DNA of 64,000 nt. Origin: Escherichia coli (GTDB lineage Bacteria > Pseudomonadota > Gammaproteobacteria > Enterobacterales > Enterobacteriaceae). This document shows positions 50,781-54,690 of this stretch, in pieces (position 1 is the stretch's first letter; every line of letters starts with the position of its first letter). The translations under genes were made by a program, and so were the position numbers. The notes beneath the pieces are model-generated. The model saw only the letters and a program-made list of their open reading frames with translations, was not told the DNA's origin and ran no database searches. The DNA lies in the NCBI RefSeq assembly GCF_003018255.1, contig NZ_CP027440.1, one strand, 5' to 3'.

Positions 50781-51701
50781 TTACTCGCCCTTTTTCGCCG
50801 CCTGAATATACAGCATCTCCAGCGCCAGCGTCGCCGCTGCCAGAGCGGTGATTTCCGACTGATCGTATGCCGGAGCCACCTCCACTACGTCCATCCCAAC
50901 GATGTTGAGATCTTTCAGGCCGCGTACCAGTTTAATGGCGCGATCGGAGGTCAGGCCGCCAATTACCGGCGTACCGGTGCCTGGTGCAAATGCAGGGTCC
51001 AGGCAATCGATATCAAAGGTCAGGTAAACCGGCATATCACCCACAATCTGTTTCACCTGGGCGATAACGTCATCCACGCTGCGATCGTTCACCTGGCAGG
51101 CGTCCAGCACGGTAAAGCCGTTGTCTTTATCAAACTCGGTACGAATACCAATCTGCACGGAATGATTCGGGTCGATCAGACCTTCTTTCGGCGCGGTATA
51201 GAACATGGTGCCGTGGTCAAATTCACAACCGTTCGCATAGGTATCGGTGTGGGCGTCAAAGTGTACCAGCGCCATTTTGCCGAAATGCTTCGCATGAGCA
51301 CGCAGCAGCGGCAGCGTAACAAAGTGGTCACCACCGAAGGAGAGCATACGCTTACCGGCAGCCAGCAGCTTCTCGGCGTGTGCCTGCAGCTTCTCGCTCA
51401 TCTCACGGGCATCGCCGAAGGCATATACCAGATCACCGCAGTCCACCACGTTCAGGCGCTCACGCATGTCGAAATTCCACGGGAAGCGGTTGTGTTCCCA
51501 GGCCAGATTCGTCGAAACCTGACGGATCGCTGCCGGACCGTGGCGCCCCCCCGCACGGCCAGAAGTGGCCATATCGAACGGCACGCCAGTAATCACCCAG
51601 TCAGCATCGCTGTCATACGGCTGGAAGTTCATCGGCAGGCGTAAAAAACCAAAGGCGTTGGAAACCAGTGAGTTATCGTATTGATGACCTAAGGTGCTCA
51701 T
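50781..51701 (-). CDS. speB: Agmatinase (306 aa)
   Basis: ORF 50781-51701; arginase-family metal-binding motifs; AGGAGT SD upstream. Confidence 0.9.
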
Positions 51702-51730
51702 GGATGGACTCCTATTACAAAGTCGATATA

Positions 51731-51769
51731 AAAAAACCCTTCCGCGTCGTTAGGCCCGACGAGGAAGGG
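51731..51769 (-). terminator. Rho-independent terminator between the lipoprotein gene and speB
   Basis: Hairpin CCCTTCC...GGAAGGG; on the - strand followed by TTTTTTT; lies 68 nt past the lipoprotein gene stop and about 30 nt before the speB start. Confidence 0.5.
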
Positions 51770-51836
51770 TTGGATTTGCGAAACACAATTTTGTGCTAAT
51801 TATCGCCTTAAATGGGCGAGGCATCAAGCGAGGTTG

Positions 51837-52568
51837 CTATTTCCGACACGGTGGCGGCGCATAGCCATTGTTATCTGCCGGAAAGGCTTGTCCAGAGCAC
51901 GGCGGCAGCGCGTTTTGCGCCGGGCCTTGTAATTCAAAGGCGGCAAAGCCGATTACACCGGTATTACGCACATCGCCTTGCGCCGAATTGGCTGCGTAGG
52001 AATCAGCAACGTTGGCGAACTGAAAAGCCGCTTCGGTATGTTTATCTTTGCGGAATCCTTTAATCGCTAACGAATCTCCGGCATTCACAATATAGCCGTT
52101 GTTATTCAGCGAACCTTGCTTGCCGTTCAGCACATCCAGGCCATCAACCGTAGCAACGATCTCGTAGTTGGTGTTACGACTGTAATTGCGGACATATAAT
52201 TGATAATTCATTCCTACTCTGGCATGGACAATATAGCGTGGTTCATTATTTGACGAATCATAAACCCGCGTAATAGGTAGAGAATTAAAATTACCATCGC
52301 GAATAGCATATTCAAGTTCGTTAATACGAATGCTATAAACGCGGTCATAGCCGGAAGGAACAGTAGTCGAATAACTAATAACGATCATCTCTGCCGGATC
52401 GCGCCAAGCTCGCTCAGCAGATACGCCCTGAACCGTTGAGTGCACATCCCCACCCCAGGCGGTGCCGACATTGCCTGATGCACTGCTATTATACTGCGCA
52501 TTACTGGAACAACCGGCCAGCAGCACGGCTAATGCTATCAACGCGCTACGTACTTTCCCTTTTTTCAT
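51837..52568 (-). CDS. Lipoprotein of unknown function (243 aa)
   Basis: ORF 51837-52568; signal peptide with lipobox LLAG-C (MKKGKVRSALIALAVLLAGCSSN); GAGGGA SD upstream; Asn/Ser/Tyr/Gly-rich mature region with two C-terminal Cys; not at this position in K-12 as I recall. Confidence 0.75.
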   Translation of the reverse strand: MKKGKVRSALIALAVLLAGCSSNAQYNSSASGNVGTAWGGDVHSTVQGVSAERAWRDPAEMIVISYSTTVPSGYDRVYSIRINELEYAIRDGNFNSLPITRVYDSSNNEPRYIVHARVGMNYQLYVRNYSRNTNYEIVATVDGLDVLNGKQGSLNNNGYIVNAGDSLAIKGFRKDKHTEAAFQFANVADSYAANSAQGDVRNTGVIGFAAFELQGPAQNALPPCSGQAFPADNNGYAPPPCRK

Positions 52569-52655
52569 AACCGTTCCCTCTGCATTTAATTAATGCAGCG
52601 ATTGTAGGGAGATTATTTAATAAGAAAAGCAGCTAAATTATTTTTAAGAATATAT

Positions 52656-52696
52656 AAAAAGAAAGCGGGCCGATTTACGTAAATAAATCGACCCGC
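52656..52696 (-). terminator. speA rho-independent terminator
   Basis: 13-bp stem GCGGGCCGATTTA / TAAATCGACCCGC with one mismatch; on the - strand followed by TTTCTTTTT, about 20 nt after the speA stop. Confidence 0.55.
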
Positions 52697-52713
52697 CAGC
52701 GGAATAATCTTAA

Positions 52714-54690
52714 TTATTCATCTTCAAGATAGGTATAACCGTACAAACCTGCCTCGAACTCTTCAAGGAACTGTTGTTGCAGTTCAGCATCAAGATCGGT
52801 TTTCTTCACTTGATCACGGAACTGGGTTAACAACGTTTTCGGATCGAGCTGTACATATTGCAGCATATCCGCCACGGTATCGCCTTCGTCAGACAGTTCT
52901 ACTTCTACGCTGCCGTCAGGGAAGACGAACACGTCAACCGCTTCGGTATCACCGAACAGGTTGTGCATGTTGCCGAGGATCTCCTGATATGCGCCGACCA
53001 TGAAGAAACCGAGCATCGGCGGATTCTCTGGATCGTACTCCGGCATTGGCATTGTCGTGGCAATACCATCACCATCGATGTAGTGATCAATAGCACCGTC
53101 AGAATCACAGGTAATATCCAGCAGCACAGCGCGGCGCTCCGGCACTTGATCCAACCCTTCCAGCGGCAGAACCGGGAACAACTGGTCGATCCCCCATGCG
53201 TCCGGCATCGACTGGAACAGCGAGAAGTTGACGTACATTTTGTCAGCCATACGTTCCTGCAGCTCGTCGATAATCGGACGATGCGCACGGTTTTGCGGAT
53301 CCAGTTGCTTCTGCACTTCATGGCACATGCTCAGATAGAGTTGTTCTGCCCATGCACGTTCTTGCAGGCTAAAGGTGCCGGAAGAGTAGCCGATATGAAT
53401 ATCGTGCAGATCCATCTGGCTGTCGTGTAACCATTCACGCAGAGAACGACGAGTTCCCGGTTCGTGCATCTCCTGCCAGGTTTCCCACATGCTTTGCAGG
53501 GCGCGCGGTGCGTCTTCTGCAGGCGCGGTCGGCACCGTGTATTCGTTACGTTCCACGCCGATGATATTCGACACCAGCACGGTGTGATGCGCAGTCACCG
53601 CACGACCCGACTCGGTGATTACCGTCGGATGTGGCAGACCATTTTCTTCACACGCATCACCAATCGCCCAGATGATGTTGTTGGCGTATTCATTGAGGCC
53701 GTAGTTCACCGAACAGTCGGACTGCGAACGGGTGCCTTCATAGTCCACGCCCAGACCGCCGCCAACGTCGAAGCACTGAATATTGACGCCCAGCTTGTGC
53801 AGTTCCACATAGAAACGCGCGGATTCACGAACGCCTGTCGCGATATCGCGAATATTCGCCATCTGCGAACCGAGGTGGAAGTGCAGCAGTTGCAGGCTGT
53901 CGAGACGCCCGGCTTCACGCAGCGTTTCAACCAGTTGCAGTACCTGAGTCGCCGCCAGGCCGAACTTCGATTTTTCCCCGCCAGAGGACTGCCATTTACC
54001 CGAGCCCTGCGAAGCCAGACGTGCACGCACGCCCAGACGAGGAACGACATTCAGACGTTCTGCTTCATCCAGCACAATGGCAATTTCTGACATCTTCTCA
54101 ATGACCAGATAGACCTTGTGGCCCATCTTCTCGCCAATTAATGCCAGGCGGATATATTCGCGGTCCTTATAACCGTTGCAGACGATGACGCTACGGGTCA
54201 TGCCAGCATGTGCCAGCACCGCCATCAACTCCGCTTTGGAACCGGCTTCCAGGCCCAGCGGTTCGCCCGAATGAATCAGGGACTCAATCACGCGGCGGTG
54301 CTGGTTAACTTTGATCGGATAAACGAGGAAGTAATCGCCGTTATAGCCGTAGGATTCCCGCGCACGTTTGAACGCGGCGTTAATAGAACGCAAACGGTGC
54401 TGCAGGATCTGTGGGAAACAGAACAGTGCAGGCAGACGCTGGCCCTGTGCTTCACGAGTTTTCACTAACTGCGCGAGATCGACGCGAGCTTCCGGGACGT
54501 CCGGGTCCGGGCACACGCTAATGTGGCCCAGCTCGTTAACGTCATAGTAGTTATTGCCCCACCAGGCAATATTGTAAGTACGCAGCATCTTGCTGGCTTC
54601 CTGGGAGCTCATTGCAACCTCCTGCATGGAGCGTAGTACACCGTGTTCGCCCGCTGACGAAGGCAAACCCATAGACATGTCGTCAGACAT
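52714..54690 (-). CDS. speA: Biosynthetic arginine decarboxylase (658 aa)
   Basis: ORF 52714-54702 trimmed to [21 protein letters not shown]...; PLP-dependent fold-III decarboxylase. Confidence 0.95.

Follow-up and report, generated by a model that had tools for sequence, protein, structure and literature searches.

The spacer between speA and speB in this Escherichia coli strain holds what we read as an independently transcribed accessory gene for a Lol-sorted outer membrane (OM) lipoprotein, lodged in a fixed permissive slot from which the gene-less allele of K-12 was derived once, a reading to which we give a probability of roughly 70%. The slot lies between the stop codon of speA and the conserved leader of speB. 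In this reading, speA transcripts would end at a first terminator (terminator 1), a weak promoter of the gene's own (-10 TACAAT) and a ribosome binding site (RBS) would drive the lipoprotein, whose transcript would end at a second terminator (terminator 2), and speB would keep a promoter-like element of its own, P, just upstream of terminator 2. The K-12-type spacer of 137 bp would have arisen a single time, the gene having been lost or the allele exchanged for a foreign one without the gene, and recombination would then have spread it. The lipoprotein would be dispensable, yet kept intact wherever it is present.

The features of the locus are listed below in the direction of transcription; the window is the whole stretch of DNA analyzed, 64,000 nucleotides long, and all coordinates refer to it.

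52714-54690, minus strand: speA (biosynthetic arginine decarboxylase), the upstream flank, from the open reading frame (ORF) list; stop codon TAA at 52714-52716, and start coordinate inferred from the 1977-nt length annotated by RefSeq in matching genomes.
52665-52697, minus strand: hairpin of terminator 1 (the speA terminator), with the U-tract UUUCUUUUU at 52656-52664; from a terminator scan and fold.
52601-52606, minus strand: putative -10 element TACAAT of the lipoprotein gene promoter, from conservation in carriers.
52576-52609, minus strand: predicted hairpin in the 5' untranslated region (5'-UTR) of the lipoprotein mRNA (MFE fold), in which AGGG of the Shine-Dalgarno sequence pairs with an upstream CCCU.
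52575-52580, minus strand: Shine-Dalgarno sequence GAGGGA, from the sequence.
51837-52568, minus strand: lipoprotein gene, ATG to TAG, 243 amino acids, from the ORF list; its product consists of a signal peptide (residues 1 to 19), Cys20, a disordered linker to about residue 30, an all-beta body (residues 31 to 213), and a Pro-rich tail with C224 and C241.
51799-51828, minus strand: speB promoter-like module P, with TTGATG at 51822-51827, a 17-nt spacer, and GATAAT at 51799-51804; from a promoter scan and alignments.
51728-51771, minus strand: terminator 2, or the speB-leader hairpin (hairpin at 51735-51771 plus U7); from the fold and an inverted repeat.
50781-51701, minus strand: speB (agmatinase), the downstream flank; RBS TAGGAG at 51709-51714 and start codon at 51699-51701.

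An earlier note on this DNA, made from the sequence alone, had placed a minus-strand lipoprotein ORF in the gap between speA and speB, and its description of the gene proved accurate, with positions that were off by a few bases at most. The ORF runs from ATG to TAG as given above, the GAGGGA RBS lies 6 nt before the ATG, and the two C-terminal cysteines are C224 and C241. The mature region, said to be rich in Asn, Ser, Tyr, and Gly, contains 10.3% N, 8.9% S, 6.2% Y, and 8.9% G; its commonest residue is Ala (11.2%), which exceeds all four. The outer neighbors of the locus (loiP and tktA on one side, metK on the other) follow the usual E. coli order, and RefSeq already lists the gene of O157:H7 under the name "lipoprotein" (WP_000758914.1).

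The N terminus of the product reads MKKGKVRSALIALAVLLAG, followed by Cys20, and continues as CSSN. Assignment to the lipoproteins was based on a positive n-region, a hydrophobic h-region, a lipobox of the form [LVI][ASTVI][GAS]C, and a cysteine at positions 15 to 35, and all of these were found. Four K/R residues fall within the first 7, the mean Kyte-Doolittle value of the h-region is 2.5, and the segment LIALAVLLAGC matches both the PROSITE PS00013/PS51257-type pattern and the DOLOP lipobox LAGC, so that the classical lipobox claimed earlier is a recognizable signal peptidase II site by formal patterns. The lipobox cysteine is invariant across the family alignment (58 homologues). In E. coli, Asp at position +2 is an inner membrane retention signal. 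Residues +2 to +4 are Ser-Ser-Asn here, with no Asp at +2, and the Ser in that position means that the retention signal is absent. After processing by signal peptidase II, the protein might be tethered through its short linker to the inner face of the OM, or be exposed at the surface, both of which we propose with low confidence.

The note had also described terminators on both sides of the gene, and a hairpin with a U-tract is indeed real at each; what did not stand is the assignment of the second to the gene's own cassette. Terminator 1 folds at -23.4 kcal/mol (z = -4.9 versus shuffles) and shows compensatory changes in 8 of its 14 stem pairs among 11 carrier sequences from several genera, and its predicted hairpin, U-tract, and conserved structure are those of an intrinsic terminator. 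It is confined to gene-carrying alleles, being absent in K-12 and in every noncarrier spacer examined, and the sequence TTAAGAkTATTCC directly past the speA stop codon is, like terminator 1, conserved in carriers of all genera. The -10-like element (TACAAT, TACTAT, TACCAT, TACTGT, or TACACT) is found in most carrier genera at an unchanged distance from the ATG, 35 to 40 nt upstream of it in most carriers. The region upstream of the element is T-rich and the -35 is poor, and because of the latter no full sigma-70 promoter was called at 52601-52606 by a consensus promoter scan. Since terminator 1 is conserved and covaries and the -10 element is conserved in carriers, the gene appears to carry terminator 1 and its own -10 element and RBS. 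This much of the idea of a self-contained gene holds; its other half, insertion into a K-12-like operon spacer, turned out to be unsupported, as detailed below. The sequence of the 5'-UTR hairpin is conserved among Escherichia alleles, and this predicted structure could, speculatively, regulate translation.

Terminator 2 belongs to a module upstream of speB (51702-51828, minus strand) that consists of a -35-like CTTGAA, a 17-nt spacer, GATAAT, about 25 variable nucleotides containing small hairpins, a hairpin with U7-8, and the RBS. This module is conserved in all 75 of the 75 Enterobacteriaceae upstream regions compared, whether the lipoprotein gene is present or absent. Its hairpin (CCCTTCCTCGTCGGGCCTAACGACGCGGAAGGG, then a U-run; -26.2 kcal/mol, z = -4.4) is near-invariant across genera, loop included, and over the hairpin and RBS segment the window and K-12 are identical at 77 of 77 nt, which excludes terminator 2 from any inserted cassette. 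P is kept in both alleles, the window and K-12 versions being identical at only 26 of 50 positions. An Rfam search of 51500-52900 gave no match. Because this terminator-like hairpin comes after the promoter-like hexamers but before the start codon, the speB leader may contain an attenuator or a leaky terminator. With two terminators and a retained speB promoter-like element, it is plausible that the arrangement uncouples speB from speA read-through, as the note had proposed. Because speA transcripts in carriers would meet two terminators before reaching speB and P is retained, we infer that speB is probably expressed mainly from P in these strains.

We then determined the distribution of the gene in E. 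coli. Megablast with 51600-52800 as the query against about 5,425 complete E. coli genomes found the full lipoprotein block in 3,550 of them (65%), at 97.4 to 99.8% identity; in the remaining genomes, K-12 included, only the flanks were matched. In the reciprocal search, the 337-nt K-12 junction was matched over its whole length in 1,865 genomes, almost always with 99.7 to 100% identity. Taken together, the two counts show a locus with essentially two alleles, of which the one without the gene is rarer and varies little in E. coli. Carriers include O157:H7, O145:NM, O104:H4, Nissle 1917, and the type strain ATCC 11775, and noncarriers include K-12, DH1, BL21, and O121 RM8352. As the carrier O104:H4 and the noncarrier O121 both belong to phylogroup B1, the alleles are not strictly tied to phylogroup. 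The expectation that K-12 would lack the gene was borne out, its speA-speB spacer being 137 bp long; this locus, with the speB promoter region in the 137-bp spacer, was reportedly described by Szumanski and Boyle in 1990 and 1992. The window itself represents a relatively divergent E. coli lineage at the speA-speB locus. Over 50781-54300, it differs from both K-12 and O157:H7 by about 3.4 to 3.5% in speA and by 2.5 to 2.8% in speB, while K-12 and O157:H7 differ from each other by 1.6% in speA and about 3% in speB, and the block was matched at 99% or more in just 135 of the 5,425 genomes, the best match being chicken strain 104 (99.8%).

The distribution beyond E. coli bears on the direction of change. 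E. albertii, Escherichia sp. MOD1-EC7003, and a divergent record labeled E. coli all possess the gene, with 95% amino acid identity, and for the latter two the dS relative to the window gene is 0.31 to 0.35; a record labeled E. fergusonii falls into the same 90% cluster as the window lipoprotein. Record L016, labeled E. coli, has a dS of 0.35 to the window in this gene and so is probably a separate Escherichia species-level lineage. Within the genus, lipoprotein divergence matches flank divergence (93 to 94% nucleotide identity in speA). The Escherichia carriers examined share one version of P (43 to 49 of 50 positions identical), and the divergence of the K-12 P segment (CTTGAATCCGCTTAATTTAGCGGTGATAATCCGCCACAATTTATTGTGA) from theirs is at the level seen between genera; the nearest matches of K-12 P are in gene-less genera, with 35 of 51 positions for both Pluralibacter and Kluyvera sichuanensis. 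A K-12-type allele that is nearly invariant and whose P has diverged like that of a different genus points to a derived K-12 state of single origin, and within Escherichia the gene-bearing state is, on these comparisons, the common and older one.

These observations weigh heavily against the view, implied by the earlier note, that a terminator-bracketed cassette was recently inserted into a K-12-like spacer in the lineage of this strain. The view draws on the absence of the gene from K-12, on the acceptance of foreign DNA by the slot at the family level (see below), and on base composition, the GC content of the ORF (48.9%) being lower by a modest margin than that of speA (54.6%) and speB (56.2%), with 33.8% in the spacer upstream of the ORF. 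A recent arrival is, however, hard to reconcile with carriers that comprise 65% of E. coli, E. albertii, and another Escherichia species at species-level divergence, with a near-monomorphic allele that is the gene-less one, with the occurrence of terminator 2 and P in all compared Enterobacteriaceae regions regardless of the gene, and with a K-12 P too different for the K-12 spacer to be the window allele minus the gene. Nor is there an insertion signature. Terminal inverted or direct repeats and a target-site duplication were sought at the cassette boundaries in the window, and only the two terminator hairpins were found; the ORF list contains no recombinase ORF at the cassette. The locus thus does not qualify as a mobile-element insertion of any of the kinds considered (IS, transposon, integron cassette, or integrative island), and we hold a recent insertion to be very improbable.

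As to how the K-12 allele arose, the alignments indicate that it is not simply the window allele minus the gene. The simplest origins would be the replacement of a short stretch by DNA from a donor lacking the gene or an indel polymorphism so old that only tightly linked bases are still diverged. A cluster of SNPs marking an imported tract was sought in the speA and speB flanks, and none was found beyond two K-12-specific SNPs, both within the last 19 nt of speA. The carrier TUM13936 (H51) was considered as the progenitor haplotype of the K-12 allele and was rejected, its alignment being window-type.

The survey of the slot across Enterobacteriaceae covered 80 species-level loci around speB, 74 of them informative, with SpeB 96 to 100% identical over the 80. 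The lipoprotein gene turned out to be present in about 10 of the 74 informative species, always in the same slot between speA and speB; in Salmonella, Citrobacter freundii, and a Klebsiella, its orthologue directly follows speA. In most surveyed species, the speA-speB spacer measures 105 to 290 bp. Spacers of noncarriers are near-empty (K-12 and many Citrobacter) or contain REP/BIME-like or CCCTCTCCC...GGGAGAGGG palindromic repeats (loci L017 to L093). Elsewhere the slot is occupied by other genes, namely, a HipA-family gene with a small adjacent ORF without a family match (L054, 1996-3670) or an IS481-family transposase (L082, 2565-3719), and a further locus (L085) has a 2-kb insert there. 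The speA-speB locus on one contig labeled "Chryseobacterium sp. 18061" (L086, CACSKA010000005.1) is enterobacterial, its SpeB sharing 96% identity with that of E. coli, and the contig is therefore probably contaminated or mislabeled.

A formulation based on three genera, that the gene is ancestral in Enterobacteriaceae and was lost in K-12, was revised once the 80-species survey revealed a patchy gene. Its strict version would have the gene present in the common ancestor of the family and inherited only vertically, with many independent clean losses and a simple deletion in K-12. This account would explain why the gene occupies one slot in one orientation in Escherichia, Salmonella, Citrobacter, Klebsiella, Kluyvera, and an "Enterobacter," why terminator 1 and the -10 element are conserved across carriers, and why lipoprotein divergence tracks that of the flanks within Escherichia. 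Between genera, on the other hand, the identity of the lipoproteins shows no correlation with that of speA (Spearman 0.13, p = 0.29), and two alleles from one genus are as distant as alleles from different genera: in a Citrobacter pair, the speA DNA is 93% identical and the lipoproteins only 76%, and in a Klebsiella pair, the SpeA proteins are 98% identical and the lipoproteins 66%. Vertical descent would further require dozens of losses, each without a trace, as relics of terminator 1, the gene promoter, or the ORF were sought in noncarrier spacers and none was found, and none of the extant Escherichia carrier alleles examined could have given rise to the P of K-12. We regard strict vertical descent as unlikely. 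Taken together, these data describe an accessory gene that keeps to one slot and has deep allelic lineages, and homologous recombination through the conserved flanks is the probable route of its exchange.

Purifying selection on the gene is strong: dN/dS is 0.07 to 0.14, and 12 carriers belonging to six genera all retain an uninterrupted full-length frame. HMMER recovered 2,915 cluster representatives of the family at E<=1e-3, 874 of these at E<=1e-10. They range over Enterobacterales, Pseudomonas, Acinetobacter, Moraxella, Kingella, Ralstonia, Comamonas, Paracoccus, myxobacteria, and Verrucomicrobia, and are named solely hypothetical or "(outer membrane) lipoprotein." The family is marked by the motifs LGTxWG, YEIVATVDGLDVLNG, GFRK, AAFxF, and GVIG and by the tail AFPxD...YAPPP, and about 30 further columns besides Cys20 are invariant among 58 homologues. 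In the same 58-sequence alignment, the C-terminal cysteine pair occurs in the enterobacterial clade and otherwise in just a few sequences. Truncated copies (174 to 181 amino acids, 88 to 90% identity), which may be pseudogenes, occur in Shigella dysenteriae (AFDB A0A090NIM7 and A0A0A6ZYV3) and in some E. coli-like contigs (P0025 and P0036). That the ORF is spurious or a decaying frame, as the Shigella copies and the lack of a Pfam, NCBIfam, or PDB match might suggest, has a negligible chance of being right against an intact frame under such selection, thousands of homologues with invariant motifs, and a confident structural model.

That model, from AlphaFold2, is all-beta, with a mean pLDDT of 84 and values above 90 for most of residues 31 to 210; residues 1 to 30 are disordered and the tail is less confident. 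Pfam returned nothing for the lipoprotein even at E<=10, or for 20 longer relatives, and the mature domain had no match in NCBIfam, PHROG, PADLOC, and PDB sequence and profile searches. Fold searches with the model yielded no characterized relative and only weak, generic beta-sandwich, MATH-like, or DUF7918 matches; the relatives of the lipoprotein in AFDB are all uncharacterized lipoproteins. A Lol-sorted OM lipoprotein that acts as a noncatalytic beta-sandwich module binding an envelope ligand is a possible role, put forward tentatively and with low confidence. In the enterobacterial clade, a C224-C241 disulfide would probably clamp the conserved AFPxD...YAPPP tail, again a low-confidence proposal.

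Seven contexts of distant homologues were examined and are mutually unrelated (a betaproteobacterial his operon; ynfD-ynfC; near recO, an aldehyde dehydrogenase, and brkB; between gal and modF), from which it follows that the protein has no conserved genetic partner. In a betaproteobacterial contig (L009 and L010, 6001-7171), a 39%-identical homologue and an unannotated ORF of 114 to 115 amino acids lie between hisD and hisC, another instance of the family inside an amino acid biosynthetic operon. In Trabulsiella guamensis (L011, 6001-6759), a 40%-identical paralogue has a ynfD-like gene (DUF1161) on one side and a ynfC-like gene on the other, with a speG-like acetyltransferase gene two genes away, and the organism's own speA-speB spacer (L074) lacks the gene. 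The linkage to speA in every enterobacterial carrier, together with the position of the Trabulsiella paralogue, could point to a tie with polyamine metabolism, e.g., envelope handling or sensing of agmatine or putrescine. Such a tie is quite improbable in our judgment, as the gene has its own terminator and putative promoter, can be dispensed with by a third of E. coli and by most genera retaining speA and speB, and resembles no polyamine-binding family in Pfam or in PDB sequence and profile searches, and its distant homologues reside in unrelated settings such as the his operon, gal/modF, and recO. By the same evidence (its own transcription signals, absence from most speA-speB loci, and distant homologues elsewhere), the gene does not behave as a member of the speAB operon.

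The locus is a K-12 blind spot and not an unusual insertion: a widespread, conserved, uncharacterized family of envelope proteins. K-12, BL21, and DH1 all lack the gene, which thereby escaped the functional genetics through which most E. coli envelope proteins were annotated, even though purifying selection acts on intact copies in O157:H7, O104:H4, Nissle 1917, the E. coli type strain, and about two-thirds of sequenced isolates. Its relatives number in the thousands across Proteobacteria. It is therefore a cheap and well-defined target for knockout and localization studies. The locus is also a natural experiment in how two paired core biosynthetic genes accommodate an independent transcription unit between them, and a clean case of a presence/absence polymorphism across genera at one fixed locus. 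A bolder view takes the gene as the E. coli representative of a very large uncharacterized family of MATH-like beta-sandwich envelope lipoproteins and has frequency-dependent selection maintain, across genera, both its presence/absence polymorphism and its deeply diverged alleles at the one locus, with the lipoprotein serving, for example, as a target of phages, colicins, or host immunity and the K-12 allele being an escape allele imported from another genus; we consider it unlikely.

Compared with known systems, the lipoprotein gene is of an ordinary, accessory kind, set in a permissive spacer, and does not constitute a new type of system. The signal peptide architecture and lipobox are the same as those of Lol-sorted OM lipoproteins of the Lpp, ActS, and LptM type, but the similarity ends at about residue 45, the mature domain being a separate family, and the sub-threshold NCBIfam and PHROG matches of the window protein are solely to the signal peptides of other lipoproteins. 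The MATH/TRAF-like and DUF7918 beta-sandwich folds share 3 to 21% sequence identity with the protein, with scores too low for homology. Relative to the K-12 speA-speB locus, the window has the same flanking genes and the identical 77-nt hairpin and RBS segment, and differs by about 875 additional bases that comprise terminator 1, an AT-rich promoter region, and the lipoprotein ORF. The slot is like the chromosomal insertion hot spots between conserved core genes whose cargo is exchanged by homologous recombination in the flanks, in its fixed position, in the alternative cargo of each lineage, and in the absence of an integrase and of repeats; unlike those hot spots, its cargo is a single small gene, and the same orthologue, not a variable island, recurs across genera.
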